From Chiloscyllium plagiosum (lineage: Eukaryota): a DNA stretch of 64,000 bases. Location of the stretch: positions 3,022,087 through 3,086,086 of the forward strand of contig NC_057753.1 in assembly GCF_004010195.1 (NCBI RefSeq), written 5' to 3'. Of this stretch, positions 14,097 through 62,819 are shown in pieces. A program made the translations under genes and the position numbers. Under the pieces are notes generated by a model, which saw only the letters and a program-made list of their open reading frames with translations, was not told the DNA's origin and made no database searches. Numbering within the stretch: the stretch's first letter is position 1; each line of letters begins with the position of its first letter.

Positions 14097-14166
14097 ATGC
14101 ACGCTCTGCTAACAGGCCTAGTATTTGCCATTTATTACCCCGTCATTGCAGTTATCGGGGTTCCAG
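14097..14166 (+). CDS. GPR139-like GPCR copy A, coding exon 1 (MHALLTGLVFAIYYPVIAVIGVP + 1 nt)
   Basis: ATG at 14097; 70 nt ending CCAG|GTAAAG donor (GT at 14167). The phase-1 junction joins in frame to the acceptor at 18466, giving YYPVIAVIGVP-ANLAV, which resembles GPR139 TM1 (YYSLLLCLGLPANIL). Same peptide at 42303. Confidence 0.9.
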
Positions 14167-14719
14167 GTAAAGTACGACAGATATTTATGAACCACCTGAG
14201 TCATGCTCGTCTGTATTAATTTATTAGGTTTATCAACAGAACCTTTTCATGGTCGATACATCATTTATTATATTTAATACGGGTATTGTCAGTATTAATT
14301 CTTCAATTTATCAAATTTCGGATCAAAGCTCTCCTTTTAGTCAAACAGTTCCATCATAATAAATGGCATAGTTATTTTCCATGAAAGCTGTCATTTTGTC
14401 GTTTTAATTACGTACTTTCTTGCGTTAATTGTTCATCTTTTCTGCGTCAAAGGTTGATCGGTTGTGTTGTTGGGACTTTGCAGTTCAGAGGCAGCATAAG
14501 TATATTGCTGTCACAGCCCAATGATGATTCTCGTGATATTGGCTGTGCTATTGGGAATCAATCAGTGAGCAGTCACTTTGAGAAAAGAATTCCTGTGTGA
14601 GTTTCGGCAATGTTCATGTGGGCGAATATTCTTAGAGCTATCATGACCTAAAATAAATTCTCTCAGGTTATTGTCACCCTTGTTGTGCATTAGTTATCAA
14701 GTTGTGACTGTGCTATTGT

Positions 14720-16330
14720 CAAGTTGTACAAACCTAGGATAAGAGGATCTCAGAGAGCCTTCTACTTATCAGGGATGCTATCGCCTAGGTGCAAGACACG
14801 GGGGTGGATACCTGCCTCACGAACCGGGGCCAGGAAGAGGCCTTTGACAGGATATTGCGCGCCTATATATGTGTTTTTGCGAGGGAATCCCAAATTGGAT
14901 CCGACTGTTCCATGCCAACATCATTTCTGCAATCTTAATCAAGGTGGGGTGGGGGGCGGTGTCAGAACGACTCCCAATCTGACCTGGAGTCAACAAACTG
15001 CCCACCTTTCATGCCTTGCTTCTTTACTGTGTGGAACTTTTTGCTGGGCCAGCCCAGAAAGATGAATACTCCAGGCAGTGGCGGCATGCAGATTCGAGCC
15101 TCCCTGTGCTTGAATGAGGTTATCATGTTCTATTCAAATCCATCATCTGAGCGCAGATTCCTGAACACCACCTACCAAAGCAAGCTGGCCTCAGGAACCA
15201 AGGTGTGTGGAGTCAAGAACGAGGTCATGTCCTTTGGGAACTGAACTGACCAATCCTTTATCCCCTTCCACATCAGGGCATATGTCTGAAGGCGCTAAGA
15301 ACATGGAGCCAAGGAGCTGGGATGTGCACAAACACTTGAGAGGAGTGTTTCACAAAGGTCACGCAGTAACTCGGCTCATGGGTGCACCGCTACCGCTCCA
15401 TTACGGGTAGAAAACTGATCAGCAGGTGTAATGTGCTCTTGGTGAAGCTGTATATGTCATAGGTCTGGTCCATTCCCCGCACTGGTGTCTTTGCAAATCA
15501 TCTTTCACTTCTGCTGAAGGTCTGCATGGGGGTGGGGGTGAAATACATACCCAATGCCACCCTCACCCCAATAGACGCCTTTGTGTACAGTTGACTTAAC
15601 CTGCGCATATTCCCTCAGCATACAAACACCAGTATCACTACAAAACTAAAGTCATTCTGGTCCCCAGTGTGGTCAAGGATGGATCTGGCCCCATTGCAGC
15701 AGGATATTGCTACTGGTGAGATTTTTCCATGTCACCTGTCACTCCTTCATGGAGAAATTTGCAGACGAGAACAACTTTGACCATCGGGCCATCAGGAAGT
15801 TGTCAGCGTGTAGCATCCTCAAGATAGTATTGGAAACTGGAGAGTACATTCCTTCACGTGATTGTCTGAGCAGATTGTCAAAGTCATTAAGAAGAATGCC
15901 TCATCGCAAAAACTTTCCAACACGCACCAAGATGTCGCCTTGCTGGAGGTGAGAAGGGCACTACCTGGCCGATCCTTCATGCATGCCCGGACTCTCTCTG
16001 CACCTACACACTGCCCTCGATGCAACTGAAGAGCGGTGTAGTTGGGGTGTGTGTATGTGGCAATGAAAGAGACTTCCACACATGTCCTTCTGGAACGTGC
16101 CTTTGCAAAGAAGATCTGGAGAGAGAGGCATAGTTTTTGTCAGGTTTCATCTCGAGCAGCTTCCTGACGCAGGAAGCTTCGAGCTTTTCCCTGGGATGAT
16201 CATTGGCTCGGAATGGAGGGCCATCAATTTGGTCGAAAAAGCTTAGTGGTCTTGAGTGATGAATGCATTAATGCATGGAGCTGCTGCTGTTAATGTGAAT
16301 TATAGAAAGACTGTTGTCGAAATTCTTTCT
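14720..16330 (+). mobile_element. Decayed Tx1/L1-clade LINE ORF2 in intron of copy A
   Basis: Remnants of QEKAFDRI, PGSGGMQIRASL (YMDD region decayed) and C-terminal HCPR..HVLLE knuckle; paralog at 43345-44990. Confidence 0.75.
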
Positions 16331-17374
16331 GCCTAAGTATACAGAGGGTTTGTCAGTTCTGAGATTCCTCGTTGATCGAATGAATGGAAATAGTTTATTT
16401 CAAGAGTAGCAAATGCTTTTGTTTAGTAACTGCAAGGATTCTTCAAGAAGTGCAAACTTCCAATGCATTTGTTTTTTTTCTTCTCTCTCTCTGTACAAAG
16501 ACTAAGAACTGTTTCACGACCTTTTGTACGATTTTTATTTTGCGATTGAACATTGCCTTTGCAATTAAAAAAATTTCTGTAATTTGTCCTTAGCAGTTGA
16601 GGAATAGTTCCATTAAACAAGTCATTGGGTGAATGGCTGGAACCATGCTTCAGACTGAATAACATTTACATTTAAAGAACGAACGTTATTCATTACCATG
16701 ATATTGGAAGAAACATGTAAAATATAGTTATACTTTAACTGGTGATTTTTTCTTTGCCCCATGACTCAGAGAGAATTGTGTTTCAGTTCTCATTCACTGA
16801 TTCTAACCTGCCCATATCTTCAATATAAAATTCTGCTGATGAGTTTAAAGTGATAACTGCTGTTGTGTAAACTAATTTTGTTGCTCAGCACCAAGCAAAG
16901 CCTCCAAATTTCTTCCCAATTTTCCTGTTTTCCATATCAAGAGAAGCACAGTAGCTATTGTATATCTCATGTAAAGCGTAAGACATTTCATGTCAAATAG
17001 CAAATACAAAATCAAGTTGATCCATTATTCTGACAGATCACGTTTGCACAAAATAAATGTTGCAATGCTGATGGGACTTCCCACCTTGCCCATCTGGGAG
17101 CTTCCCCCAACAGCCAAATGTTCCACCTACTATTACTGGTAGTGCGGATTAATATTTAGAATGCTTGCTTATCCAACTCCGGGTTGTAATGGCCTCACAC
17201 CCAAAAATATATCTGTGAAGTTGGTGTGAAGATAATTCACACTAGTGGGTGTGTATTGGTGCGAATAACTAGTGGGTGATTTTAGAGACTCAATAACAGT
17301 TACCATTATGAAGAGAGAGAAAAACCAGATGAGAAGGAATATTGAGTGCTGTGAACAATACATTCTAAGCTTCA

Positions 17375-17890
17375 TAGAAACTGCAAGAAAATTGAATTGG
17401 CAGCCGTCGAGTCGATAAGGAGTTTATTGAATATTTTCTCACAGCAACACATTCTGGATCCAACTAGAGAGCAGCTTAAGTTAGATTTGGCCTTGTATAA
17501 TGTTGCTAGGTTAATTCGTGATTTCAGGATATGAACCACTTTAACAGCATATAATTACATGAATGAATTTACTTTCAGTTGAAGGGAAGAAGCGTGAGTT
17601 AAGACTAGCATTATAAATTGAATAAAGGCAATTATGCGACATGAAAGCTGATCTGGCTGACATGACCTGGCCAACTAGAAAAGAGGGTAGATTATTAGAG
17701 GCCCTTTGACAGTCATATTATGGGACGTTATCGAATGATCAAAAGTAGCATATCCCCACAATAGAGAATCTAAAGGGGGGGACCACCTTCCCTATTTAAC
17801 TGGGAAAAAAAATGAAACACACCCAACTTGAGGAAAATAAAACGATTCGGCGCACAAAAATGAGTAGCAGGTCAAATGACTCAGCAGAAT
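17375..17890 (+). mobile_element. Old CR1 ORF2 fragment (endonuclease/linker)
   Basis: Degenerate PTRE..LDL and LNKGNYxDMKADLA-like segments. Confidence 0.55.
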
Positions 17891-17892
17891 GT

Positions 17893-18142
17893 TGCTATGG
17901 ACCAGGCCAGACCGCCTCAAAACATTTCAAGAAAGTAGCCTAGACCCTGACTTTGTTACCACTTTTAAGCAGGTGTAATGCAGATTTTTCTGGGAGGGCT
18001 GCATTTGGTCAAACCACTTAGTTTTAACAAAACAGAATTTATTTTCAAGACTACCAAATTAAACTAGACTGCTCCACGCCTCTGCTTTCTCACCTCTCCA
18101 AACAAATCGCAATAAACATTTTAAATTAACAGCATCGTCACA
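17893..18142 (-). mobile_element. Internally deleted solo LTR related to the Gypsy LTR
   Basis: Both ends resemble 7874-8464 (ACCAGG..CCTCAAAACATTT..AAGAA and ..ATCGTCACA). Confidence 0.65.
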
Positions 18143-18466
18143 ACTGTGCTCTTAATAATGTCAGAGAAGGTTAAGTGACAGAAGCTTTATTTTTGCTCCA
18201 CTTTTACTGTAAGCATGCACTTTGTTAGGTCTCACTAAATTCTTTTCAGATCTTATGATTTGATCAGCTAAATCTTTCACCTGAATAGCTGTGTAAAAGC
18301 AAGGAAATCAGTACCCACAATACAAACAATGATTACCAAAACTGTGCCACATTTCAAAATGAATATTTCACACAGAATCCTGGAAGATTGGTTATTCTGT
18401 TGGACTTCAAATGTCATACACACAATCTGTTATATAGTTATCTCTGTGTTTCTCTATCTATTACAG

Positions 18467-19392
18467 CTAACCTGGCAGTAACTGTGATCCTCTCTCAACG
18501 AAGATGTGGTCTGTCTGGATGTATCATTTATTACTTCGTGTCCATAGCAGTGGCAGATCTGCTGGTTATGGTCATGACTGTAATATTAAACCGGATTGCC
18601 GGTATTTATTTTCCATACAGCTTCCTGTCTATCACACCAGTATGCAGTGTACGCAATGCTTTAAATATGGCAGCTACAGATAGTTCTGCCTGGCTAACAG
18701 TCGTTTTCACCTTTGACCGATTTGTGGCCATTTCTTGCCAAAACCTGAAAGTTAAATATTGCACCAAGAAGATGGCAGCATGGGTTATAGGAATTGTGTG
18801 CACATTGACCTGCCTAAAAAATATCTTCAGGTGCTTTCAGTTTGAACCGAGGTACATAATTAAAGGCATACCCTGGTTCTGTGACATAAAATCAATATAT
18901 TATACTTCACCAGCATGGACTGCATATGACTTGATTCGATCCATTTTAAACCCTTGTCTCCCATTCATTTTGATTTTCCTGCTCAATGCCCTGACCGTCA
19001 GATACATTCTCGTAGCTAACAGAGTCCGTAAGAGACTTCGGAATCAGAGAATTGAAGAGAACCAGAGTGACCCAGAGGTAGAGAAGCGCAAAAAGTCCAT
19101 TATTTTACTCTTTGCCATCTCAGGTAGCTTCATCCTGCTGAATTTATTATATTTTGTAACAATCCTCTACGTCCGAATTGCTGATGTTACTTATTCCTCA
19201 GGTTCTGATGTCAATAATTCCACATTTGTTCTCCAACAGAGCGGATCTATGCTTCTGTTGTTAAACTCTTGTGTCAACCCATTTATTTATGCCGGGACAC
19301 AACGTAAATTCAGAGACGAGTTAAAGGATGTGATTAAATATCCAAGGAGCCTATTGTTTAAATTAATAAAATTGGAAAAAAGAAAATTCTAA
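18467..19392 (+). CDS. GPR139-like class A GPCR copy A, coding exon 2 (spliced protein 331 aa)
   Basis: Pyrimidine tract plus TTACAG acceptor ending at 18466; open frame to TAA 19392. Seven hydrophobic segments, IAVADLL (TM2), TM3 Cys, FTFDRFVAI, ECL2 WFC, NPCLPF, NPFIY. A paralog rather than a clear GPR139 ortholog, so no symbol given. Confidence 0.93.
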
Positions 19393-20443
19393 CATGAAAT
19401 ATTGATTTCTTCCCTTGCCTTTCCTAAGGATCACCATTTGAAATCTGAATGTACTAAAGGAATTTAATAATATGCCAGAAGTGCTGTGAATTTCTGTAAA
19501 CTGCTCCCAGGTAAAACTTAGCTTTTTTTTCTGTTCTGATTCACGTTTTTCACATTTCCAATTCTCAGTTGCCCTTCTCAGACCAAAGTTTGGCCTGTTC
19601 TCATGCCCTGTGTTCATTCCTCAACTGAGAATATTAAATTGCCAAAATCATTTCAAACATTGCTTAATGCCCACACACTGCAATGTCTGCATCGGCAGCT
19701 TGATGAAGATTGCAGAGTCATGACGCCAGTGCGAACAGTGAGCCTGACTAAGTGTTATCTCAGAGTAATTTGACACCTCAGCGGCTACATGCCTTACTGC
19801 CTCTGCTGCCCCATGGCATCTAAGGCACTGCTAATGGCCACGCTTACATTGTTTCGCATAGAGAACTCACAACCTAAACCTTACAGGGAGATGTTCTGTG
19901 AAACAGATTTAAGCTGCAGCTTCAACAGCTTTGCAGTTTCTAGTCAAAACTCATACAGAAGATTCATGTAAAACCGTAAATGACAACAGCTGGCAAAACC
20001 GACTTAGAACACAGAATTGTACACCACTGAGAACCAGCTAAATGTGAACTTTGGCAGCTCGTCGTCTCGAATTCTGGGTGCCCGAATTTTCTCGTGTAAT
20101 ATCTTCACTTAAGGTGACTTTCACCGGAGACAATTTTCAGCAGTAAAGCAACATTTAAAAATGTCACACAAATGCCAGCAATCATTGCTGTGAGCTTGAA
20201 AATGACAGAGACTGTACAGAGAAACAAACTACTCATGTTCAACTTCCTTTTCCAAAGCACACGAACCAGATTACTACGACTCCAGTGAATCTCACAAGGC
20301 AATGCCTGATGCGCATTCCTCAGTTAAAGTAAAACAACTGACTCATGGCAAATCCTAAACGCTTTCATGTTATATCTCTTTTTGCTTCTGTCCATCCCTC
20401 CCCTACCTCTTCCCATGCAGGACCTAGTCAAGTAGTTAGAATA

Positions 20444-21310
20444 AGGAACATAGAACATTACAGTGCAGTACAGGCCCTTCGGCCCTCGATGTTGCACCGA
20501 CCTGTGGAACAAATCTGAAGCTTATCTATCCTATCCTGTTACATTTTCATTATTTATATTTCATATGGAATTTGTTTATCTATTGACTATTTAAATGCCC
20601 TTAAAGTTGGCGAGTCTGCTACTGTTGCAGGCAGTGCACTCCACGCCCTTACTACTTTCTGAGTAAAGAAACTACCTCTGAGATCTGTCCGATGTCTATC
20701 ACCCTCAATTTAAAGCTATGAACCCTAATGCTCGCCATCGCCACCCGAGGACAATGGCTCTCACTGTCCACCCTACCTAACGCTCTGATTATCGTATATG
20801 TTTCAATTAAGTCACCACACAACATTCTGCTCATAAACGAAAACATCCTCAAGTCCCTCAGCCTTTCCTCCTAACACCTTCCCGCCATACTAGACAACAC
20901 CCTGATATACCTCCTCTGCACACTTCCCAAAGTTTCCACATCCTTCCTGCAATGCAGTGACCAGGACTGTATGCAATACTCCAAGCACGGATGCACCGGA
21001 GTTTTGTGCAGCTCCAGCATGACCTCCTGGCTCCAAAACTCAATCGCTGTACCAATAAATGCTAACACAACGTATGCCCCCTCAATGTTGAGTGGTGACT
21101 TAATTGAAACATATACAATAATCGGAGCATTAGATAGGGTGGACAGTGAGAGCCATTATCCTCGGATGGTGATGGCGAGCATTAGGGTTCGTCGCTTTAA
21201 AATGAGGGGTGCTAGATGTCAGACAGATCTCAGAGGTAGTTTCTTTATTCAAAGAGTGGTAAGGGCATGGAATGCACTGCCTGTATCATCCTGAGCAGCA
21301 ACTTTCAGTA
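20444..21310 (-). mobile_element. CR1/HER1 3' fragment (paralog 52067-52745), containing inverted insert 21084-21283
   Basis: AGAACAT tail repeats; LEYCIQSWS on minus. Confidence 0.88.
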
Positions 21311-21944
21311 ATTTTACTTGATGAAAACCCAGGCCGAAATTTTACTTCGAAAATAGAAAGCAGGGATCCAAGATGCAAGACATTGAGGAGTGAGCTGTTT
21401 ACAGACCACAAGGCATGAGGATACAATTGACCTTGATCTTCTACATTGATTCCAAGAATGTGCACTGTGTATATTTTACGCAGATGAAGTCTCCTTCTAC
21501 AGTTGTGCACGAGATTGAAATATGAAATTGTTACATTCTCGCACTGAATTTCAAAGTGTGAAAAGTAGAGTAGCAGTGATCCCATGGTGTGTGGCACTTG
21601 TACTACAAGACAGTGCAGTACAGGCTGTGGAACAGTCTCTGTTTCGATGGGTTCATCTGCAGGGAAGGGTTTGCATTATTTAAAGAATCACTAAATCAGT
21701 CCTGTTCCGAACGTGTAGCAAGAAATGACAAGAAAACATCCCACTGCATTTGATCATTGTCTTAACTTTAAAAACACATCATAAATGCTGAGGAAGTAGA
21801 TTTCATTGGACTGGGTTGGAAAATGTTAAAATGGCTGTGGGTGAAACCGCGATGACATTGGAACTTCGAAACGATAGAGTTGAGGCACAGAAAGCGATAA
21901 TTCAACAAGGTGCATTGCTTTGAAAGAACAATTACGAGTCGGAA

Positions 21945-22394
21945 GATATGAACGTTCAGTAAGATCATGTCTGATGTTTTCGTGGACTCAGCTCCATTTA
22001 CCCGCCAACTCATCATAACCCGTAGTTCCTTTAAATCTACCTATCTTTGTCTTAAAAGCATTCAACAAGGTAGCTTCAAATGTTTCACTAAGCAAGGAAT
22101 TCTACAGACTCACAATCCTTTGGGTGAAAAAGTTCCTCCTCAACCCAGTCCTAAATTCCCTCCCCCTTATTTTGCGTCTGTGACGTCTAGTCCTAGTTTC
22201 ATCCTCCAGTGGAAACAACCTCCCTGTTTCTATCTTATCTATTTGCTCCATAATTTTAGATGTATCTATAAGAACCTCCTTCCTTTTTCTAAATTCCAAC
22301 GTGGGTCTGTTTCCATACTGTAGGCATTCTATTCTATTCGAAAGTCCCAGTCTTCACAATTTCTCTTCATAAACAAGCACTGTTAACTCTGAAA
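21945..22394 (-). mobile_element. CR1 3' fragment split by the Penelope insertion (continues 28014-28200; uninterrupted paralog 53375-53985)
   Basis: RLFPL..TRTRRH..RRNFFTQRIV on minus. Confidence 0.8.
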
Positions 22395-28010: not shown

Positions 28011-31000
28011 TTTTTAACTCTGGAATAAATCTAGTAAACCTTCTCTCACGCCCTCCAGTGTATGGTGACCAAAACTACACATTTGTCGAAGTGTGGACTC
28101 ACCAGAATCTATATAGCTACAGCATACCCTCCCTGTTCTTAAACTCAGTCCCTCTGATGGACAATATTCCAATTGCCTTATTAATTACCTGCAAACCAAC
28201 TGGCTTGTCCTGTTTTGTTGATCAGGAATAATATTTGTAGCGATGCAAGCAGCAGGAAGTTAAATCTTTCACGCTATCGCCGAGTATTTGCCTTGTACCA
28301 CTACCTGTATATTCGATATATTGTGTGTTTGCTACCGGTTGCAACTTTGCTTTACATGCCATCATTCTGTCTTTACTTTGTGTTATGGTTTTACATGATG
28401 TGGCCATCACTGGCCAAAGCCAGCATCTTATTCTCCATCCCTCATTTGCCTGGAAAGAAAAGTGGGCTTGCGCTGCTTTCTTGAATCACTTCAGTCCTTG
28501 TATTCAATGTACATGATATTTGCAGCTCTGCTGCGAAGCATCAACACTAATTCCACTGATTCTTGTAGAGCTATTGCCCCTTTTAAAATTTCAATCAGTA
28601 AGGAATGTCAGTTCCTTTCAACATTTGCACAAAATGAATAAATCTTCATTGACTGAGGCCAGAAATCACGCCCTGGTGATTAAAACACTAACTCCTAGTC
28701 ACTGGGGCACCAGAGAAACTACCTCCAAACTTTAACACTTGACTTGTCTGCACTACATTTCCAATTTCCTCCTTCATTTCCACTATTTTCACCGCAGACA
28801 AGCTGCTCTGTCAAAATTGCATGTTTAAGTAGAACACAAGCAATTCCCCCAGTGAATTACACCCGTTGCTTTGAGCTGGTAGGTAATACCGACACTTTTC
28901 CTCCTTTAAGACAGATCCTAAACCCCACAATCTTTGCCCAAGCGTTTCCTTAACTCCCCAGATATGTGTCTCGGTGTCATACTGTGCTATATAATGTGTC
29001 TGGGCAGCACTTTGGGATTTTCCATGAGGCTAAAGGAGCTACGTCAATATAAATTGTTGTCAGACAGAAACAGAAAGAAACAAAATCATCTCTTGCACCT
29101 TTTTACAAAGAGATTCTTCACAGAAGTTCCACCAACAGGAGTTTTCTCACTATTTACTATGCCGAATACATCAGGAATTTGAAGACTTCAGACAAAATAC
29201 AGCCTTCTGTTTGCAGGCCAGAGTAGTTCCAATTGGTTAAAAGTTTTCCACAGAATGGATCTGCCTTATCCCTGCTCGTAGCCTTTTTAATTTTCTGTGG
29301 AAAATATCTCGTGCCTTTGCATTTTTTCAGATGGTTAGTGACCAGAACTGGATGCAATACCTTGATTGAAGCAAGTTACTATTTGATATTCGATTAAAAT
29401 AAAATCTCTGCGAATGTTCACTGTGCCTGAATTTGCTCAGTCTACAATGCTGTATCCCTCATCCAATTTGGTCTCAATGTATCATGGTGTATTCACACTG
29501 TCATTCAAATATGCATGACAGGAGCCTCTGTTTAAGCAACATCTTTGTAGTTACTTACGTTCTGTTACATCGATTCATTGGAGTTTTTTCAAAAAAGAAT
29601 TGAACCACTTCACACTTCCCTGCATTAAATTTCATCTCCCCCTTGACATCTATCCTGTGAATCTCTTTTTAATTGCTTTGATGTTCTGCTCTACGAATGC
29701 ACTTACGTATATATCGGAATGTGTTACTGTACTTAACGTTTTGCAGTTGTGCCTGGTACGCCAAATTCATGTAATCACTGAATACCAAGTTAGCAGGGTC
29801 ATACAAATAGAAACATGTTGGTCTTTGCTATAACATTGCATCCCATCGGGAAAGTGAAAAGAAAATCGACTTGATTAATAACAAAATTCCGCCAGTATTG
29901 GGAATCCAAGTTTAAAATGAGCACAGAAAATGTTGTAAATTAACAGAATCTGGGGTAGCACATGAACAGCTAGAATACGCTCTACATTTCATGTTGTGAC
30001 ATTCAGCCATACCTCTATTCGATTAAAATAAAATCTCTGCGAATGTTCACTGTGCCTGAATTTGCACAGTTATCTCTGAAACCATTCAATACCGACGTCC
30101 ACACAGAAAAATAGAAGTGATTCAGTAGCCCAAAAATACGTAAGCTTAATTCACTAGAGGAAAAACAAAACGTAATCTCAAAAGTAATACATTGCTAAAT
30201 GTTCGCCAATTCCTTGCACCATCATCATTACCTTTTGTAAATGTCGCAGCCAGGACCAAGCTTGCAACAATCGTGATTTTATTACAAACCACCAGGGGGA
30301 GACGTTTCAAAACAGAAAGTATACAATGAGATGGAAATAAAGAGCAATAGTTTTTTTTTAACAACAGATTTGGTGATGGATGCACGCTAAATAGGGTGAA
30401 AGAAACAGGCAAGTTACTACAGGTAACCACGGAGACACCACAAGGAATCAGAAATTATGAATGACGATAGAATCTGTATATCCAGTCGCTTTTGTTTCGT
30501 GCAAGTTTTAACAATGTAACGGCTTGTTGAGGTATGACATGCTCCACAGTTTAAGTCTCATTTGTCCACGGGTCCATAAAAAAAGCCAACAAAAAGTAAT
30601 AGGCTGTGAATCTGTGGCCATTGACACTTTTTAATCCCATATGCGTATTCAAATGATCTATAAATTGGAGAACGACTTCCTGAAGTTTCACAATAGCCAC
30701 AAAATATATTTGAATTATTCCAGTTATTGTCTACCAGAAGAGGCATTTATTTTTTGGCTCGTAGTTTGCACGCAGAGACCATGTAGGAGCTCTCAATTGT
30801 TTGCTCCCTTCTCCAGTGAAACAACGCAACTGGTTATTTAATAGCATTTGGTATCACTTTAGATTGTCCTTTATTGAGGAAAAACAAATCTTTCACGTTC
30901 ACAGTTGTCTTAATGATGAGATCCAAAGTGATATGATGAGAAATCAGAGAGAGTGAAAAGGTGACCTCGTCAGAAGAAAATATCGAAAATGTAACTGACA

Positions 31001-42302: not shown

Positions 42303-42372
42303 ATGCACGCTCTGCTGACAGGTCTGGTATTTGCCATTTATTACCCTGTCATTGCAGTTATCGGGGTTCCAG
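42303..42372 (+). CDS. GPR139-like GPCR copy B, coding exon 1
   Basis: ATG at 42303; same 23-aa peptide as copy A with only synonymous changes; CCAG|GTAAAG donor (GT at 42373). Confidence 0.9.
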
Positions 42373-43309: not shown

Positions 43310-43344
43310 CTCTTTAGTTATCAAGTTGTGACTGTGCTATTGTC

Positions 43345-48544: not shown

Positions 48545-48665
48545 AGAGTCCAGAGCGTGGTGTTGGAATAGCACAACAGGCCAGGATTCTGTCCGAACTG
48601 CTGTGTTTTTCCAACACCACACTCTAGACTCTGATCTCCAGAATCTGCAGTCCTCACTTTCTCCC
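48545..48665. mobile_element. Short inverted-repeat Penelope-derived element
   Basis: AGAGTCCAGAGCGTGGTGTTGGAATAGCACA...TGTGTTTTTCCAACACCACACTCTAGACTCT; same family as 54343-54576. Confidence 0.7.
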
Positions 48666-49118
48666 TTCCGCTCTGTTCTATTACCTGAATACACTTTATA
48701 TGGCATGATCTATTTGTTCTGCATGCAAACCTAAACGTTTTCTGTACCTAGGTTGATGTGAGAATAATAAATCATATCAAGTCAAATTCTTTGAGCAGGA
48801 CATGTTTTCAAGTTAAATCTTTGCCTCATACCAAAGAGGATCTTTGCAACTGGATCCCTGTTAAGGATTTCTCCAGCTCTGAGGCAATGTGCTTCTATCT
48901 TACACGAGGACAGCACAGCCATTGTGACTCCTGATTCTGGTTCCAGGAGGAGAATATATTTTCCCAATTACACCATCTGCAGCACAACTATATTCTCATT
49001 CCACCCCGCACTTAAATGGCTCCTGGTATCACAACGCCATTGTCGTTTTGCTCATCGTTCCTGCCGTTCCCATTCTCGTACATGCAACTTAGAATAACCT
49101 CGTAATCATTGGACAATT

Positions 49119-49416
49119 GCCACGGTGGCACGGTGGTTATTACTGCTGCCTCACAGTGCTAGAGACCCGGGTTCAATTCCCGCCTCAGGTGAATGTCTGT
49201 GTGGAGTTTGCACATTTTCCCCGTGTCTGCGCGTGTTTCCTCCTGGTGCTCCGGTTTCCTCCCACAGTCCAAAGATGTGCAGGTTAGGTGAATTGGCCAT
49301 GCTAAATTGCCAGTAGTGTTAGGTGTAGGGGAATGGGGCTGGGTGGGTTGTGCTTCGGCGGGTCAGTGTGGACTTGTTGGGCCGAAGGGCCAGTTTCCAC
49401 ACTAAGTAATCCAATC
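49119..49416 (+). mobile_element. HE1-type V-SINE
   Basis: tRNA head, V-domain and tail as at 3759. Confidence 0.92.
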
Positions 49417-50107
49417 CTGGAGGAATCCCCGCTTGCGTTCCCATAGCACCCATGGGGTTTTGGAGCCTGGAGCAAAGCTTCCATGTAACTACCCCTCTGC
49501 CTGAGGCAGTGCAATGACTGCAACTCAGCTTCTAGCTCCTTGGCTCAGTTCTGCAGTTGCTTGAGCAGTGAACATTTGCTATTTAGGTATTAGATGCAGA
49601 TCACCTAGATATCCAAAACAATTGCTACAGCTAGAAATCAAACAAGAAAAAGACATGAGTTGGGAGAAGGGGCCACTCCCCTTCCATTGTAAAACTGAAT
49701 TGTTCTTGCCTCTGATTTATGACCACTTTTCAAACAGCATGCTTTGTTAAATTACTTTGTTAAAGTGACAGCATCATCACAACTGTGCTCCTGTTAATGC
49801 CAGAGAAGTTTAAAGGGGCAGATGCCTTTTTTTAATGCACAATTTTACACTAATCATGCACTTTGATGGGTTTCACTATTTGTTTTCAGGTCTTATGCTT
49901 TTGATCTGTTAAATGCTTCACCTGAATGGCTGTGTTAAAGCAAGGAAATCAATACCCATAACACACGCCTTAATTATTGAAGTTGTGCCACATTTCAAAA
50001 TGCATATTTAACACAGCATCTTGAAAAATTAGCTATTTTGTTGGACTTCAATAGTCATATCCACAATCTGTTATAACTTTATATCTCTGTCTCTCTATCT
50101 ATTACAG

Positions 50108-51033
50108 CTAACCTGGCAGTAATTGTGATCCTGTCTCAACGGAGATGTGGTCTATCTGGATGTATCATTTATTACATCATGTCCATAGCAGTGGCAGATC
50201 TTCTGGTTATGGTCATGACCGTAATATTAAACCGGATTGCTGGGATATATTTTCCATACAGCTTCCTGTCCATCACACCAGTATGCAGTGTACGCAATGC
50301 TTTAAATATGGCAGCTACGGATAGTTCTGCCTGGCTGACAGTCGTTTTCACCTTTGACCGATTTGTGGCCATTTCTTGCCAGAACCTGAAAATAAAATAT
50401 TGCACCAAGAAGGTGGCAGCGTGGGTTATAGGAATTGCATGTGCATTGACCTGCCTAAAAAATATCTTCAGGTGCTTTCAATTTGAACCGAGGTACATAA
50501 TTAAAGGCATACCCTGGTTCTGTGACATAAAATCAATATATTATACTTCACCAGCATGGACTGCATATGACTGGATTCGACCCACTTTAAACCCTTGTCT
50601 CCCATTCATTTTGATTTTCCTGCTTAATGCCCTGACCGTCAGACACATTCTCGTGGCTAACAGAGCCCGTAAGAGACTTCGGAATCAGAGAATTGAAGAG
50701 AATCAGAGTGACCCAGAGGTAGAGAAGCGCAAAAAGTCCATTATTTTACTTTTTGCCATCTCAGGCAGCTTCATCCTGTTGAATTTATTGTATTTTGTAA
50801 CAATCCTTTATGTCCGAATTGTGAATTCTACTTATTCCTCAGTTTCTGACTTCAATAATTCCACATTTGTTCTCCAACAGAGTGGATTTATGCTTCTGTT
50901 ATTGAGCTCTTGCACCAACCCATTTATTTATGCTGGGACACAACGTAAATTCAGAGACGAGTTAAAGAATGTGATTAAATATCCAAAGATCCTATTTTTT
51001 AAAACTGTGAAACTGGAAAATAGAAAACTCTAA
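50108..51033 (+). CDS. GPR139-like class A GPCR copy B, coding exon 2 (spliced protein 331 aa)
   Basis: TTACAG acceptor ending at 50107; open frame to TAA 51033; about 28 aa differences from copy A by eye; DRF and NPFIY motifs intact. Confidence 0.93.
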
Positions 51034-54000
51034 CATGAACTATTCATTCTCTCTTTCTTTCTCTTTTCCTGAGGAACACCATTTGAAATCTGAATGGACG
51101 CAGGGTACTTAAGTATATGTCAGAAGTTGTGTAAATTTCAGTCTTGTAAAATGCTCCCAGATAGAATTCAGCTCTCCCACCTGTTCTGATTCAGGTTTTG
51201 CTCATTCCCAATTCCTAATTGTCCTTCTCAAACTAGATTTTGACCTGCCCTGTGCTCATTCCTCAATTGGGAATATTTAAACGTGCAACACCATTGCAAA
51301 CATCGCTGACAGCTCACACGCTGCAACGTCTACGTTTGCAGCTTGATGAAGATTCCAAGCTGTTGTTTCACTCATCAGTCATCAGTCATTGGCTACATGC
51401 ATTATTGCCTCTACTACCCCACAGCATCTAAGGTATTGCTAATGGTCACGTTCACATTGTTTAACCAGAGTGCACACAACCTAAACCTTACAGGGAGGCA
51501 TTCTGTGAAACAGATCTAAGCTGCAGATTAAGCAGCTTTGCAGTTTCTCGTCAAGAATCATACAACAGACTCATGCAAAACCACAAGTGACAGCACCTTG
51601 CAAAACGACTTAGGACACATAACTTTACACTGCTGAGAACCACCAAAGTTTTAACTGTGGCTCCTTGTAGTCACTAATTCTGGGTGGCAGAATTTTTCTA
51701 TGTCGTTACTTGTGCAATATCTTCACAAAAGGTCACTTTCATCAGAGACAATTTTCTGCAGTAAAACGTTTAAAGATGGCACACAAATGACCCGCACAGC
51801 CAAAGCCATCAGTCGTTGCTGTGAGCTTGAACATGATACAGACAGTGCAGTGAAACAAACTGCTCATGTTCAACTTCCTTTTCCAAAACACACGAGCAAG
51901 ATTACTGTGACTCCTGTGAGTATCACAAGGCAACGCCTGATGGGCATTCCTCAGTTAACAAAAAAACTGACTCATGGCAAATCCTAAACACTTTCATGTT
52001 GTATCTCGTTTTGTTTCTGCCCCTGCCTCCCCACCTCTTCACACGCAGGTCTTAGTCAAGTATTTAGAACATAGAACATAGAACATTACAGTGCAGTACA
52101 GGCCTTCGGCCCTCGATGTTGCGCCGACCTGTGGAACCAATCTGAAGCCCATCTATCCGACTCAATTCTATTTTCACATTTCATATGGAATATGGAATAT
52201 GTTTATCTAGTGACCATTGAAATGCCCTGAAAGTTGGTGAGTCTGCTGCAGTTGCAGGCAGTGCGTACCACGCCCTTACTATTCTCTGAGAAAAGAAACT
52301 ACCTCTGATATCTGTCCTATATCTATCACCACTCAATTTAAAGTGATGTTCCCTCGTGCTAGCCATCACCATCCGAGGAAAATGGCTCTCACTGTCCACC
52401 CTATCTAACCCTTTGATTATCCTCTATGTTTCAATTGTCTCCATCAACGTTCTTCTCTCCAGTGAAAACAGCCTCAAGTCCCTCAGCCTTTGCACATAAC
52501 ACCTTCCTGCCATTAACAGGCAATATCCTGGTACATCTCCTCTGCACCTTCTCCAAAGCTTCCACATCCCTCCGATACTGTGGTGACCAGAACTGCACAT
52601 AATACTCCAAGTGTGGTGCACCGGAGTTTTGTACAGCTGCAGCGTGACCTCGTGGCTCCGAAACTCAAGCCCACTATCAATAAAATCTAACATACCCTAT
52701 GCATTCTTAACAACCTTATCAACCTGGGTGGCAACTTTCAGGGACGTTGCTCGATGAAAACCCAATGTGAAACTTTACTTTGAAAATGGGGAGCAGGGTT
52801 CCAAGATGCAAGGCATTAAGAAGTGAGCTGTTTATAGATGGAAAGTTAAAGAGACATGAAGTTATAATGCCCTTGAACTTCCATACTGATACTGGGAATG
52901 TGCACTCTGTCCATCTTCCCCAGATAACATCTCCTTCCACATTTGTACACATTATTGGGCTATGACATTGTAACATTTTCTCACTGGATTTCAATGTGAG
53001 GCAAGTAGAATTACAGTTATTTCATGCTGTGCAGCACTTCAACTCCAAGACAGTGCAACACAGGCTGTGGAACAACTTCTGTTTCAACGTGTTCAGCTGC
53101 AGGAAGGGGTGTGCACCATTTCAAGGGTCACTGAATCAGTCTGATTCCGATTTTGGTTTTAGAAATGACAGGAAAACATCCCACTGAATTTGATCATCGT
53201 CTTAACTTTAAAAAGCTGAGATGGTATATTTCATTTGGAGTGAGTAGTAAAATGAGAAAATGGCTGTGGTTGAAACCACTATTGTATTGGAAACTCCAAA
53301 TGATAGAGTTCTGGCACAGAAAGAGGTAATTCCACAAGGTGCGTTACTTTGAAAGAACAGTTGAGACATAAAACGTAAGAACATTCGAAAAGATCATGGC
53401 CAGTCTTTTTGTAGACGCAGCTCCACTTACCTGCCAACTCATCGCTATCCTTAATACCTTTACTCTTCAAAAATCTATCTATCTTTGTCTTAAAAATATT
53501 CAATGAGGTAGCTTCACCTGCCTTCTTGAGCTGGGAGTTGCTCAGATTCACAACCCTTTGGGTGAAGACGTTCCTCCTCAACTAAGTTCTAAATCTGCTC
53601 CCTCTTAATTTTGAGGCTATGACCCCTCGTTCTAGTTTTCCCACCAGTGGAAATAACCTCCCTGTTTCTATGTTATCTACTTGCTTCGTAATTTTATCTG
53701 TTTCTTATAAGAACCTCCCTCCTTCTCCTATTGTCCCAGCCTTCTCAATCGCTCTTCATAAGCCAACACTGTCAACTCTGGAATGAATCCAGTCAAACTT
53801 CTCTGCACTCGCTCTAGCGCCAGCACATCTTTTCTCAAGTAAGGAGACCAAAACTACACAGTACTCCAAGTGTGGCCTCATCAGAATCTACACAACTGCA
53901 GCATAACCTCCCTGTTTTCAAACTCGATCGCTCTGAAGTACAATATTCCCTTTGCCTTCTTAGTTACCTGCTGCACCTGCAAACCGACTGGTTTTTCTTG

Positions 54001-54342
54001 CCTTGTTGATCGAGAGTGATATTTGTAGCAATGTTAACAGCAGGAAGTTAAATCTTTCACATTATTACCGAGTATTTGCCTTGTACCACTAGCTATACAT
54101 TCGCTATATTGTGTGTTTCCAATCCATTGCAACCTTTCTTTTCATGCCATCATTCCATCTTTAATTTGTGTTATGGTTTAACAAGATGTGGCCATCACTG
54201 GCCAAAGCCAGCATTTTATTCTCCATCCCTCATTTGCCTGGAGAAAGTGGAGATAATCTGCCTTATTGGATCACTTCAGTCCTTGTGTTCAGGTTCCTGA
54301 GTGATTGCATGTGACATTTGCAGTTCTGGTGCGAAGCATCGA

Positions 54343-54576
54343 TGTTGAGAGTGTGGTGCTGGAAAAGCACAGTAGGTCAGGCAACATCCGAGGAGCAGGA
54401 AAGTGGACCTTTCAGGTGGGAGCCCGTCATCAAGAATGAGGCCTCATTCGTGATGAAGGGCTCGGGCCCGAAAGGTCGTTTCTCCTGCTCCTCGTATGCT
54501 GCCTGACCTGCTGTGCTTTTCCAGCAACACACTCTCCAACTCTGATCTCCAGCATCTGCAGTCCTCACTATCTCCT
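54343..54576. mobile_element. Palindromic Penelope-derived insertion with mutated hammerhead motifs in both arms
   Basis: Arms 54344-54441 and 54442-54540; flanking duplication GCGAAGCATCGA/GTGAAGCATCAA; empty sites at ~685 and ~28535. Confidence 0.85.
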
Positions 54577-57109
54577 GTGAAGCATCAACACCAACTCCAC
54601 TGATTCTGGTCGACCTATTGTCCCTTTTAAATTTCCAATCAGTAGGAAATGTATGTTCCTTTCAACATTTGCACAAAATGAATAAATCTTCACTGACTGA
54701 AGCCAGGAATCGCGCCCTGGTGGCTAAAACACCAAATCCTAGTCACTATGGCACCAGAGAAACTGTCTCTAAGCTTTAACACTTGACTTGCCTGCACTAA
54801 CTTTCCCATTTCCTCTTTCATTTCCACCATTTTCACCAGAGACAATTTTCTCTGACAAAATGGCATGTTTAAGTAGAACACAAGCAATTCCCTCAGTTAA
54901 TTACACCCATTGCTTTGAGCGTATCGGTAATGCCAACGCTTTTCCTCCTTTCGGACAGTTCCTAATACCTACAGTCTTTGCCCAAGCTTTTACTTAACTC
55001 ACCAGAAATGTGTGTCGATGTCAAACTGTGCGTCGGGGCAGCACCATAGGATTTTTCATGAGGCTAAATGAGCTGCATCAATTTGAATTGTTATCAGACA
55101 GAAACAGAAAGAGACAAAATCATCTCTTGCACCTTTTTATAAGGAGATTCTTCAACAGGCGTTTTCTTACTATCTACTATGCCCAATACACCAGAAATTT
55201 GGAGACTTCAGTCAGAATACAACCTTCTGTTTGCAGGGGACATTAGTTCCAACTATTCATAGTTGTCCACAGAGTGAAGCTGCCTTATCCCTGCTAATAG
55301 CCTTCTTAATCTTCTATGGAAAATCTCTCAGGCCTTTCCATTTTTCCAGATGGTTAGTGCCTAACTGGATGCAATACTTTGTTTGAAGCAAGCTACTGCT
55401 CAATATTCGTTCAAAATAAAATCTTTGCAAATGTTCTCAATGCCTCAGTTTTCAAAGTCTGCAATGCAGTATCCCTCATTCATCCTGGTCACAATGTATC
55501 ATGGTACATTCACATTTTCGTTCAAATATACATGCCAGAAGCCTCTGTTTATGCAATATCTTTGTAGTCACATGTGTTATGTCACATTGATTCATTGTGT
55601 TTTTCAAAAATATTGAAATACTTCACAGTTCTCTGAATTAAATTTCATATCCCTCTTGACATCTATTCTGAGAATCTCTTTATAATCGCTTTGGTGTTCT
55701 ACTCGATGAACGCACTCATCAACATATCAGAGTGCCTTACTGTACACAGATTTTCCTGTTGCACCAAATTCAGGTCATCTCGAAATACCAAGTAAGCAGG
55801 GTCCTATAATTTGAACCATGAGGGTCTCCACTATAACATTGCATCCAGTTGGGTAAGTGAAAAGAAACTCGGCTTGCTGAATAACACAATCCCACCAGTA
55901 ATGGGAATTCAAGTTTAAAATAATCATAGAAAATGCTGTAAATTAACAGAATCTTGGGCAGCACATGAGCAGCTAGAATAGGTTTTACATTTCATCTTGT
56001 GACATTCAGCCATACCTCTTACTTATCTTAGTTTTACGTTTTCTCTGAAACCGTTTAATACGAAGGCTCACGCAGAAAAATAGAAGTGATTCAGTAGCCC
56101 AAAAACAAATACGCTTCATTCACCACAGGAGAAAAAGAAATCTAATCTCAAAAGTAACCCATTCGGCTGTTCATTATTTTACATTATTGCACCATCATGA
56201 TTACCTTTTGGAAATATAGCAGCACTGACCAAGTTTGTAACAATTTTAATTTTATTAACAATCACTAGGGGGAGTCATTTCTACCCAGAAAGTACACAAT
56301 GAGAAAGAAATGAAACGCAGAAGAGAGGGGGTAAAAACAGATTTGGTGTTAGATGCATGTTAAAGAGGGTGAAAGAAACAGACAAATTACCATAGAGAAC
56401 CATGCTGACACAACAAGGAAGCAGAAACTATGTGTGACTGTGGAACCTGTGCATCTCGTCGCTTTGTTTGGTGCATATTTAAACAATGGAAAGGTTTACA
56501 CAGGTATGACATGTTGCACAGTTCAATTCTCATTTGTCCAGTTCTCCATAAAAATAGGCAGCAAAATGTAATAGGCTGTGAATGAGAGGACAGTAACATT
56601 TTTTTAATCCCACAAGTGTTTCCAAATGTATTTGAGAATGACTTCCTGAAGTTTCACAGTAGCCACAAAATATATTTGAATTATTCCAGTAATTGCCTAC
56701 CAGAAGAGGCACTCACTTCTTGGCTCATATCTTACGCATAAAGATACTAACAACTCCGTTAACCAGCCATGTCGTAGCTCTCAGTCTCTTGCTTCCTTCT
56801 CCAGTGAAACATTGCAACTCGTAATTTAATGGCATTTGGTATCACTGTAGATTGTCCTTTATAGGGGAAAAACAAAGCTTTCACATTCGCAGCTGCCTGA
56901 ACTACGAGGTGCAAAGTGAGATGATGAGAAATCGGAGAGAGTGAAAAGGGGACCTCATCAGAAGAAAATATCAAAAATGGAACTGACAAAACTAATGGGA
57001 GGCCACGCAAAGACATTGGCACAAACATGAAACATCTATTCACAAGCATTCAACAACACGCAGACACTCAAAAGTAAATGTGTACCTTTATGATTTTGAT
57101 ATTTTTCCT

Positions 57110-57952
57110 TGGATAGTGATGGCGAACATGAGTGGACATGGCTTTAAACTGAGGAGTATTAGATAGTAGTAAGGGTGTGGAATGCACTGCCTGCAACAGT
57201 AGGACACTCGCCAACGTTAAGGGCATTTAAATGATCATTGGATAAACATATGGATTAGAATGGAATAATGTAGGATAGATAGGCTTCAGATTGGTCCTAC
57301 AGGTCAGCACAACATCGAGGGCCAAAGGGCCTGGACTGCACTGTAAAGTTCTATGTAGATGATAATGAATATTACTTATCAGAATTTGCAGTTGCTGTGG
57401 TGCTGTAAATTAAATATAATGTACACATTTTGATATAACACTTTTGTATTTAGTGGCACTATTATAAACGTTGCAACTAACATCCAGAAAGTAACAAATA
57501 TTTCCATGTTTGTTTGACATTGTAATGACTCTGGCTTATGTCACAATGGGTTAAATGTTCTAAATATCAAGCCGACAAATTAAGAGTTAAATATTTCTGA
57601 ATTAGAGTCATAGAGTCATAGAGATGTACAGCACGGAAACAGACCCTTCGGTCCAACCCGTCCATGCCGACCAGATATCCCAACCCAATCTAGTCCCACC
57701 TGCCAGCACTCGGCCCATATCCCTCCAAACCCTTCCTATTCATATATCCATCCAAATGCCTCTTAAATGAACCGAGCATTATGGGCAATTTAGCATGGCC
57801 AATTCACCCTAACCTGCACATCTTTAGACCGTGGGAGGAAACCAGAGCACCCAGAGGAAACCCACGCGGACACGGAGAGAATGTGCAAACTCCACACAGA
57901 CAGTCGCCCGAGGCTGCAATCAAACCAGGGACCCTGGTTCTGTGAGGCAGCA
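57110..57952. mobile_element. CR1 3' ends (+ 57110-57358, - 57604-57770) and minus-strand HE1 SINE fragment (57775-57952)
   Basis: Family tails and V-domain match other copies in the window. Confidence 0.8.
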
Positions 57953-58169
57953 ATGTCACCATTCAGTATTAATAGCAGGCTGCCAAATTCAAGTGTAAAA
58001 TTTGCATCTCATATGTTCTTCCCTTCTTCACTTCTGATGGAGCAATACTGGACTCAAAATGCTAACTCTGCTCTCCTGCCACAAACACTGCCAGACCCAT
58101 TAATTTCCTCCTGCAATTTCTCTTTTTCTTTTCCCCTTTGTTGTGTCAACCTTTCCTAATTCCAATTCA

Positions 58170-58460
58170 TAGTCTCTCATGGAAAGAAACCATTTGGCCC
58201 AACAGATCTGCACTGAACCTCTGAAGAGCATCCCACCGTGTCCTCTAAACCCCACATTTACCAAGGCCTACCCACCTCGACTGCAAATCCCTGGACGCTA
58301 TGGTGAAATTTAGTATGGTCAATCCATCTAAACTGTACATTTTTGGACTGTAGGAGGAAACTAATGCAGGCACAGGGAAAATGTGCAAAGTGACCCAAGG
58401 CTGAAATTGACCACAGGACCCTGGCGCTGTGAAGTAGCAGTGCTAACTACACTGCCACCT
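58170..58460 (-). mobile_element. Old V-SINE, complete here but truncated in paralogs (7155-7401, 34545-34771)
   Basis: Runs through to the tRNA head (GACCCTGGCGCTGTGAAGTAGCAGTGCTAAC). Confidence 0.75.
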
Positions 58461-59750: not shown

Positions 59751-61258
59751 TCCCAATTTCTTTGCTCAAAACCAGCAATCATTTTAATGCTCTCCTGCTG
59801 ACCTCTGTCTTGGTGTGTATTGGTTCAAGCAAATAGGTCTGACCTTTGGATTTTCCACATGTATGTGAGTTCAATGTGTTTTCATCCTGACTACGAGGTT
59901 TAGCTTCATTCAGTCGCCTATTTAGAGCCGCAAAGCAGACAGAATCCAAAGCTCAGCATTTGCTGTCCTCATAGTCATTCCATTATGGACTGCCCACAGA
60001 ACTTCAATGTTGTTTGACCTGGTCTTCCATTTACTTCTGTGTACCATTTCCTGTGACCTGAGTTCACATCATGGTATTCTGGGTTCATACTGCACAATGT
60101 GTTAAAATCCTAATATATTGTCATTGTCAGGCTGTGATTGCTGGCTACTTCACTGAAATCTCTGGCATTCACTCAATAGAATAACTGTGTCACACAGTGT
60201 CACTTAAATCTGTAACACTACTGGAGGTTGTACAGGATGTCCAGAACAGTATTGTCCACCAAATAGACGATTGACTGAAGACCCGAGGCTTGTGCCAGAT
60301 GAAAATACATGGACCTTGCATACAAATGAGAAATTGAAATGATAGACAGCCTATTTCAGACCACATAGAGAAATACATAGAGTTAGAAATATTAAGAATG
60401 GGTCTGCATACTTGATAAAATAGTGTTTAATCTGAATACGTCCAGTTGATTTGGGAAGTATTTATTTTCCATCAACACTGCCATTTCTATGGTATCAAGT
60501 CAAATGTCTCTATTTTGTTTCAATGCCTGCATTATATGAGCGAACCTTTGAATCTGTGAGCACGAAACATTGCTACTGTGCTGGAAAGCGGTCAGAGACA
60601 AAGAAACAATAAGGCAAAACATCCAGAAATTTCGTTCTGTTGTGAGAGTGGTTTGAAATCTGCTATGATTTTTGTTTAGTGTATTGCAGCTTTGATTTGA
60701 TTCTCTTTCAGTTCATCATAGAATCATTATCATACAGTCCTACAGCACGGAGGCAAGTCCTTCAGCACAAACAATGCTTGCCAACCAAAATTACATCCAC
60801 ACTAACCCAATTTCCCTGCACTTGGTTGAAAACTTCCTTTATTTAATTTTGCATGAAATACTTATTGCTGCATTTAATTTAAAATAGAAGCATTAGTCCT
60901 TTCAATAACTTGGACATCTTAATTCATTCTAATCATGGTTCTTTCCCTTTCAGTTTGTGTTATGTTTCATTCTCCAGATGTCTGTGGGCTGTGTCTGCTG
61001 CATGTAATGGGGGTATCAGTTGCTATCATTTCAACTAGCAAAGCTCTGACATTTGATCTCAGCTACAGCGGATATCCTTGCTCCCCAGAAGCTTGCTCTG
61101 CAATTAAATTAAATCAAAGTGATTTGCCGAGGTGTGGTAGATGTACTCGGCATATTTTGTTGGCTGCAAGTAAATTCTGTGCAACATGATTTCATTCCCT
61201 TTCATTGAATCTAGTGGTGATTGTGATACTGTCCACAGGAAGGTGCAACCTCTCCAGA

Positions 61259-61516
61259 AGATATAAAACAGACCTAAGAGGAAACTTATTCACGCAGAGT
61301 GTGTGTCTGTATGGAATGAGCTGCCAGAGGATGTGGTGGATGTTAGTACAATTGCAACATTGAAAAGGCATCTGGATGGGTATATGAATAGGAAAGGTTT
61401 GGAGGGATATGGGCTGGGTGGTGGCAGGTGGGACTAGATTGGGTTGGGATACCTGGTTGGCATGGACGGGTTGGACCAAAGGGTCTGTTTCCATGCTGTA
61501 CATCTCTATGACTCTA
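61259..61516 (+). mobile_element. CR1/HER1 3' end inserted in the GPCR pseudogene
   Basis: WNELP region plus tail CTCTATGACTCT. Confidence 0.88.
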
Positions 61517-61866
61517 TGCATCGTGCTGTTTATGGCAGTACAGACCTCCTGGTCATTATCGCTGCAGTGATATCAAATTGAATTGCATTCTTTATTTTCC
61601 AGATTGTTTCTTAATCATTACGCGGGATTCAGTTTCAGCATTGCATGATTTTATGCACACTGACTCCGTTCTATATGATTAACTATGATTTTCACATTTG
61701 ACGGACGTAAAACATTTTGTTGCCTGAAACCAAAACCAAAATATTACACTGAGAAAACAGCTGCTGCTGTTATAGGAATGGTGCAAATGTGTTAGCTTTT
61801 TCACTTAATATTCCCCGGTATTTTATGCATAAGTGAATTTGCAGAATTGATAGCACAACATGGTTT

Positions 61867-62138
61867 TAGATTAAATTCCCTACAGTGTGGAAACAGGCCC
61901 TTCGGCCCAACCAGTCCACACCGACCCTCCGAAGAGTAACCCAACGGGACCCATTTCCCTCTGACAATGCACCTAACACTATGGGCAATTTTGCATGGCT
62001 AATTTACCTGACCTGCACATGTGGGAGGAAACCAGAACATGCGGAGTAAACCCACACAGACACAGGGAGAATGTGCAAATTCCACACAGACAGTCGCCCG
62101 AGGCTGGAATCGAACCTGGGACCCTGGTGCTGAACCAC
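61867..62138 (-). mobile_element. HE1-type V-SINE inserted in the GPCR pseudogene
   Basis: V-domain on minus; splits the WF|C codons. Confidence 0.9.
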
Positions 62139-62263
62139 TGTGGACAGAAGAATACACATTATACTTTCCCTTTATGGAGCTCTTTGATTGGTTTGACCAT
62201 ATTATAACTCCTCAGCTCCCACTCTTTCTGACTGTTCTGTTTAATGCTGTGACTGTTAGACAT

Positions 62264-62513
62264 AAGTATGTAAGTTACCTCACTGAGCTGGAAGGTTCGT
62301 TTTCAGATGTTTCATCACCACTACTAGGTAGCATCATCAAAGGGAGTCTCCGGTGAAGTGTTGGGACATACCACCAGAGCTTCACCGGAGACTCTCACTG
62401 ATGATGTTACCTAGTCATGGTGACGAAACATCTGTAAGCTAACCTTCCAGCTCAGTGAGCAAACTTACATACTTACCATCAACCTGGGCTACAAATCTTC
62501 TCAAAAACCACCA
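62264..62513. mobile_element. Inverted-repeat Penelope-derived insertion with hammerhead motif
   Basis: Arms 62263-62358 and 62380-62475; flanking duplication ACTGTTAGACAT (62252-63) / ACTGTTGGACAC (62514-25); CTGATGA 62398-404, stem GTTACC/GGTGAC, GAAAC 62425-29. Confidence 0.85.
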
Positions 62514-62819
62514 ACTGTTGGACACATTCTGCCGGCCAGTAGAAACCGTAAGGGGGCTCTGCGCTCAAGTGGGGAAAACAAAGGTCGTCAAAGAGGCAGA
62601 GAGCCAGAGAAAGTCTGTCATTTTACCACAGGTATTTGCAGTATCTGGTATTTTCGCCATGACCAGAGTGCACTTCCTATTTCTCATAGGGTAGGGAAGC
62701 TTTTGCAACACTCCATGCACACCGCAGAAACTGGGAAACTGGTGCAAAAACACAACTTGCGACCCAACAACGCCCCCTGTCCATGACTGGGCTCTGACAT
62801 TGACCAAGGGAGGGCTTGC

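Follow-up and report, generated by a model that had tools for sequence, protein, structure and literature searches.

What are the two closely related receptor genes that stand in tandem in a 64,000-nucleotide stretch of the shark Chiloscyllium plagiosum (contig NC_057753.1, positions 3,022,087 to 3,086,086, forward strand; hereafter the window): copies of GPR139, whose name automatic annotation gives to most of their kin, or members of a separate receptor repertoire? GPR139 is a class A orphan G-protein-coupled receptor (GPCR) that is activated by L-Trp, L-Phe and ACTH/MSH peptides and signals mainly through Gq/11 (PMC7318219). A first-pass annotation of the window had proposed a tandem birth-and-death array of GPR139-like seven-transmembrane (7TM) receptors, expanded in sharks, with the look of a chemosensory or immune-sensing repertoire. 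We find that the two genes, here called A and B, are members of a cartilaginous-fish family that is large, derives from the GPR139 lineage and has apparently not been described; it is probably a ligand-diversified sensing repertoire. The evidence for this reading includes the size of the family in sharks and a reversal in conservation at the predicted ligand pocket, which varies among shark paralogs and is conserved in the single-copy orthologs of two sister genes.

Both genes are intact. Each codes for 331 amino acids in 996 nt with no internal stop, interrupted by one GT..AG intron in phase 1 that measures 4300 nt in gene A and 7735 nt in gene B. The two proteins are identical at 303 of 331 positions (91.5%), and the coding sequences at 925 of 996 nt. 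A and B are under purifying selection: the Nei-Gojobori estimates are 0.179 synonymous (dS) and 0.044 nonsynonymous (dN) substitutions per site, a dN/dS of 0.24 (bootstrap 0.14-0.38; Fisher p 1e-8) rather than a value near 1. The DNA around the genes has changed much as the first-pass annotation described, with frequent indels and with well-aligned non-coding windows of 100 columns mostly 70-90% identical between A and B, which is in line with the coding dS. Against Pfam, the two genes match 7tm_1 at 73.6 and 71.6 bits (cut-off 30.5), and exon 2 matches no other Pfam family. A predicted structural model (predicted local distance difference test score 65) fits class A GPCR structures, and a fold search added nothing beyond class A.

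Sequencing reads point to further close relatives. The DNA-like runs X1 and X3 cover the intron and contain exon-2 contigs that differ from gene B; of 16 exon-2 variants checked in these contigs, gene B lacks 7, so more close paralogs or alleles exist, and read depth in these runs was not taken as copy number. One exon-2 bin, at 18674-18890, reached contig depths of 10362 and 5415 in the DNA-like runs compared to ~100 nearby, which probably stems from a short coincidental match with a repeat of high copy number.

To gauge the family beyond the window, protein clusters at the 90% identity level were searched through a word index, which, out of 3664 candidates, gave 1181 clusters with E<=1e-3, a sum over species and not the content of one genome. 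All 120 of the clusters listed come from sharks, with 54-74% identity, and most bear the automatic name 'probable G-protein coupled receptor 139'. Among these 120 matches, 69 are from Heterodontus (horn shark), 19 from Rhincodon (whale shark), and 9 from Stegostoma; these counts are lower bounds obtained with one query, and a few entries may be isoforms (pairwise identity 63-97%). The Heterodontus models are strongly clustered, with 50 on one 59.5-Mb contig and 9 and 8 on two others. An exhaustive search of the 50% representatives gave 615 matches, 100 of them at E<=1e-30. Among the 30 of 150 listed representatives that were checked by name, 18 of the 19 at E<=2e-42 belong to sharks, skates, rays or Callorhinchus, so the family spans chimaeras and elasmobranchs. 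The window genes group with carpet-shark sequences in a tree that left out 46 of the 69 Heterodontus sequences. The shark expansion, with its many clustered copies and its births and deaths, thus bears out the repertoire-like pattern first suspected, rather than two or three GPR139 co-orthologs.

For comparison, cartilaginous fishes are reported to have 6-13 odorant receptor (OR), 3-5 TAAR, 2-4 ORA, and 8-43 V2R genes (PMC10116579), and the largest reported V2R cluster holds 65 genes (bioRxiv 2025.06.08.657570). The genes of the present family already stand in public annotation, under the automatic name only. The expansion was not found described in the literature searched or in the accessible texts of bioRxiv 2025.06.08.657570, PMC8455134, PMC11979771, PMC10620051, PMC11406177 and PMC7677710; the preprint's figures and table on tandem arrays (Fig. 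5A, Fig. S3, Table S4) could list it. No mention of the family occurs in the supplements available from PMC8455134 (12 of 24 files), PMC10787021 (12 of 14) and PMC10620051 (1 of 1). Two gene models touch on the surroundings of the arrays: in one from whale shark (P0089), a family member is joined to C2H2 zinc fingers, and in bamboo shark one cluster (P0169) contains a RING-domain model, which suggests that arrays are located among zinc-finger or TRIM-like genes.

Judged by sequence, the shark family is not GPR139 itself and the automatic name is misleading, because identity to human GPR139 is 20-22% and none of the six residues of the GPR139 pocket is kept. Human and zebrafish GPR139, by comparison, are 70% identical, and the agonist site of GPR139 comprises E108, F109, H187, W241, R244 and N271 (PMC7318219). 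The residues of gene A at these six sites are N, M, R, N, Y and S; the sixth is F in gene B. With these figures, extending the Trp/Phe specificity of GPR139 to the shark genes is not supported. The shark family also has a pair of cysteines linking transmembrane helix 3 (TM3; other helices likewise) and the second extracellular loop (ECL2), which GPR139 lacks in the alignment. Among solved structures, the broad alignment finds its best relative in GPR139 (1.7e-31 vs 1.1e-25), and so do both sister genes, by 4 to 8 orders of magnitude. With a profile of shark sequences only, GPR139 (4.2e-13) ties with TRHR (3e-13), and with gene B alone, several peptide and amine receptors rank above it.

Two groups of relatives in bony vertebrates are closer, each at ~31-33% identity. 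The first, which is the nearest, is a gene of amphibians and sturgeon with about one copy per species. Its 20 amphibian clusters and the sturgeon make up 21 of 25 matches, the other 4 being chondrichthyan; since no more than 4 of the numerous shark members came up in this search, it is no proof that bony vertebrates are without expansions. The second, the P0221 group, has roughly a single copy in each species and ranges over teleosts, sturgeon, bowfin, coelacanth, amphibians and reptiles. It has shark orthologs of its own (of 145 matches, 120 were listed, and 3 of these are named shark entries) and is therefore not the ortholog of the expansion. No mammal is among the 120 matches listed, and the arginine that GPR139 has at 6.51 is kept in 24 of 24 sequences. 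Two models of this group carry the name of TMEM183A isoforms, which suggests that the gene lies beside or within TMEM183A. The coelacanth models P0221 and P0283 differ by an insert at the same codon at which the shark genes have their TM1 intron; GPR139, too, has two exons (PMC7318219). The sister genes probably correspond to the GPR210 orphans of PMC6504862, which are a likely lead. GPR210A and GPR210B, unstudied and filed beside GPR139/142, were reported there from coelacanth, gar and teleosts, while the sister genes found here occur in coelacanth, teleosts, sturgeon and amphibians. The accessible text of that paper contains neither 'shark' nor 'cartilaginous' and reports no expansion.

The comparison of paralogs with these orthologs separates the signalling core from the predicted pocket. 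Core motifs (N at 1.50, D at 2.50, the DRY-type motif, NPxxY, and the TM3-ECL2 cysteines) are near-invariant in the 69 Heterodontus and 19 Rhincodon paralogs, and conservation extends over the receptor's signalling side (DRF, a TM5 proline and asparagine, NPxxY). W6.48 and P6.50 are largely lost in the shark family; the amphibian gene keeps both in 20 of 20 sequences. It also retains three of the six GPR139 sites, with F, W and N in 20 of 20, and has K in place of R. Among the Heterodontus paralogs, entropy is 1.18 at 31 predicted pocket positions compared to 0.60 at 173 other helix sites (p 4e-6), and among the Rhincodon paralogs, it is 1.17 compared to 0.80 (p 0.002). The relation is reversed in orthologs, at 0.07 vs 0.48 in 20 amphibian sequences and 0.63 vs 0.93 in 24 sequences of the second sister gene. 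Tree-aware rates agree with entropy, the pocket being faster in shark paralogs and slower in single-copy orthologs, and the ortholog pockets are slower even than non-pocket sites in the outward half of the receptor (p 3e-5 and 4e-4). A pocket that is fast in paralogs and slow in single-copy orthologs is as expected of a ligand-diversified repertoire. As far as the alignments can tell, the ancestral constraint on the pocket is gone in the shark paralogs. This reversal between paralogs and orthologs, together with the single-copy amphibian sister gene, is what is new here.

Several results weigh against our interpretation. The 31 pocket positions are predicted ones, from a general class A list numbered by sequence anchors. 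When the pocket was compared with the 70 outward-half non-pocket sites, the paralog excess had p 0.02 in Heterodontus but was absent in Rhincodon (p 0.32), so that relaxation of constraint accounts for it no less well than positive selection. The 28 differences between A and B show no enrichment at pocket sites (2 of 31, compared to 11 of 173 other helix sites; p 1.0). The amphibian gene groups with the shark family in two trees (FastTree 0.92; in the second, of 52 chosen sequences, Shimodaira-Hasegawa-like approximate likelihood ratio 94.5 and ultrafast bootstrap 79), both built without a true GPR139 or GPR142 sequence, and the deep tree is weak, such that the amphibian gene may nest, with poor support, among basal shark lineages. 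In the single-cell runs X5 and X6 (one sample, tissue not stated; ~2% and 6% of reads), the exon bins had no depth except one at 0.18 in X5, whose 42 partial reads lie nearly all on intronic repeats; X6 had no read anywhere and hence is no test. Finally, canonical EBF patterns gave 0 sites across the whole window.

A different kind of repertoire, the main rival reading, would account for the same evidence. By analogy with the FPRs and MRGPRs, which detect microbial or damage peptides in mammals, the receptors might serve immune or barrier sensing on leukocytes, mast-like cells or nociceptors. We regard this as unlikely, while granting that selection, family size and pocket variability fit it equally well and that the zinc-finger fusion and the RING-domain model hint at fast-evolving neighbourhoods. 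MAS1 and its relatives are also lacking in cartilaginous fishes (PMC8455134), which leaves such a role open. Weighing on the other side, the neighbourhood hints come from two gene models only, and no immune-cell expression was seen; the single-cell blank, from a sample of unstated tissue, is no test of the idea.

The variable pocket could instead reflect a duplication-prone locus whose copies are kept for dosage or for ligand-independent signalling, for example in the germ line, while the pocket drifts. In its favour, the pocket in Rhincodon evolves at the same rate as outward non-pocket sites (1.10 vs 1.07), the differences between A and B are spread over all regions with no preference for pocket sites, pseudogenes are present, and W6.48 and P6.50, retained in the amphibian gene, are largely lost. 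We nevertheless consider this account rather improbable, given the dN/dS of 0.24 between recent duplicates, the persistence of the family in chimaera, skates, rays and sharks, and the observation that about 7-8 of the 20 fastest helix sites in Heterodontus are pocket sites, although these make up 31 of 204 sites overall. That the genes are simple GPR139/GPR142 co-orthologs sensing Trp/Phe as in mammals, as the RefSeq name on most members and the rank of GPR139 as best solved relative might suggest, is highly improbable in view of the low identity, the fully replaced pocket residues, the extra TM3-ECL2 cysteine pair and the closer single-copy relatives in bony vertebrates.

Returning to a ligand-diversified sensing repertoire, the mechanism we propose begins with tandem segmental duplication, which makes copies of which some are kept by purifying selection and others decay, as is seen in the window. 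A single ancestral gnathostome gene with a GPR139-like pocket would have stayed close to single-copy in amphibians and sturgeon, and in cartilaginous fishes it would have been amplified. Each paralog would then bind different small ligands through its diversified pocket, perhaps amino-acid derivatives or short peptides, and may signal through a G protein, possibly Gq/11 as GPR139 does. Expression would be expected in chemosensory cells of the nose, mouth, skin or gut. We put it at an even chance that the repertoire is one of chemical sensors in this chemosensory sense. We lean this way by analogy with other GPCR repertoires that form clusters, from the ligands of the wider group, which are aromatic amino acids and peptides (PMC8557429), and because the shark repertoire known so far is small. 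Only tentatively, and at somewhat less than even chance, do we extend it to a fifth olfactory/taste receptor family of cartilaginous fishes, drawn from the GPR139 lineage and exceeding their V2R repertoire.

Compared with known systems, the family shares with GPR139/GPR142 two coding exons and a colinear 7TM alignment, and it finds in them the best solved relative of the wider group. It differs from them in its low identity, its replaced pocket, its cysteine pair and a P6.50 that is mostly lost, and in having dozens of copies in one species compared to a single copy. Near the shark family in feature space lie clusters bearing the nematode Srw serpentine-receptor family, and Srw receptors are chemoreceptor-like. 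The protostome receptors for MIP, proctolin, FMRFamide and myosuppressin are sister to GPR139/142 and expanded in protostomes (PMC8557429); they are 24-27% or less identical to the shark family, and the expansion is independent. The OR, TAAR, V1R/ORA as well as V2R/OlfC repertoires (PMC10116579) resemble it in their tandem arrays, pseudogenes, lineage-specific gains and variable outward face, whereas their ancestry differs, the shark genes matching Pfam 7tm_1 only.

The coordinates of the genes and of other features in the window are collected in Table 1.

Table 1. Features of the window, in window coordinates
Feature	Position	Strand	Method or measure
Gene A exon 1 (70 nt; brief N-terminus, beginning of TM1, donor in phase 1)	14097..14166	+	
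Gene A exon 2 (926 nt; remaining 7TM receptor and stop codon)	18467..19392	+	
Gene B exon 1 (70 nt)	42303..42372	+	
Gene B exon 2 (926 nt)	50108..51033	+	
Older pseudogene of the family (TM1-TM6 fragments)	61196..62690	+	tblastn, hmmsearch, nhmmer
Duplication unit 1 (holds gene A)	157..22291	+	self-blast
Duplication unit 2 (holds gene B)	28060..53730	+	self-blast
Partial unit 3 (just its upstream part; lacks a receptor gene)	~53795..58389	+	self-blast and family searches
Stretch like the 3' flanks of A and B	1..152	+	self-blast
Intron-1 block	14458..14695 (A), 42749..42985 (B)	+	A vs B 96-98% identical
CpG island	62500..63500	.	GC 0.55-0.67, CpG observed/expected 0.72-0.87

Self-alignment resolves the window into tandem segmental duplicates with a spacing of ~28-32 kb, and with selected copies beside a decayed one, the first-pass observation is confirmed and the proposed birth-and-death array supported. 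The pseudogene consists of colinear pieces that frameshifts, insertions and stop codons interrupt (nhmmer E 3e-16, 4e-9 and 1e-6); its exon 1 was looked for in the window and not found. Summed tblastn scores are 222 bits to the best family member, 109 to gene A and 135 to gene B. Being closer to other family members than to A or B, it predates the A/B duplication and is indeed the older copy, as first proposed. A further copy upstream had also been suggested. The flank match at the very start of the window stands, pairing with 21521-21676 (3' flank of A) and 52958-53109 (3' flank of B), matching nothing else in the window, and running on colinearly into the next unit. From these 152 nt, a further receptor gene upstream is plausible, the support being indirect and the copy itself outside the window. 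The CpG island at the array edge, after the pseudogene, probably serves as promoter for a neighbouring, unrelated gene at which the array ends; a coding exon for such a gene was not identified at 62500-63500. Decayed remains resembling long terminal repeat (LTR) retrotransposons, with zinc-knuckle and integrase-like frames, were observed at 11349-13044 and 36898-40275; they are common to both duplication units and therefore predate the duplication. A 26-nt satellite was looked for on the upstream side of both genes and not found.

The block in intron 1 includes an identical run of 131 nt (14475-14605 vs 42766-42896), while the longest run in a coding exon is 91 nt. It contains three CCAAT motifs, and its B-type variants occur at raised depth in the DNA runs. 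It is either a gene-conversion tract or an enhancer or other regulatory element. A structured RNA was considered and rejected, with z from -0.5 to 0.2 and no Rfam match in the window. A homeodomain hexamer with a weak O/E-like stretch lies ~85 nt 5' of both ATGs, at 14011-14027 and 42215-42231; as an olfactory-type homeodomain and O/E promoter motif it was rejected, since the pattern was fitted post hoc, the two matches are homologous and canonical EBF sites are absent.

Taken at its observed size, a family of which one shark has 69 or more distinct annotated members has been hidden under a misleading name, outside the four families that chemoreceptor surveys count. Its single-copy amphibian relative, whose pocket is partly GPR139-like, gives a practicable way towards the ancestral ligand, and an expression map of the family would test for an unrecognised chemosensory or immune sensing system in sharks. 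Cartilaginous fishes have been described as GPCR-poor (PMC8455134), and their small olfactory repertoire has been explained as discrimination traded for sensitivity (PMC10116579). If the family is a fifth olfactory/taste family, it would explain how these animals, with so few ORs, TAARs and V1Rs, still have a keen chemical sense.

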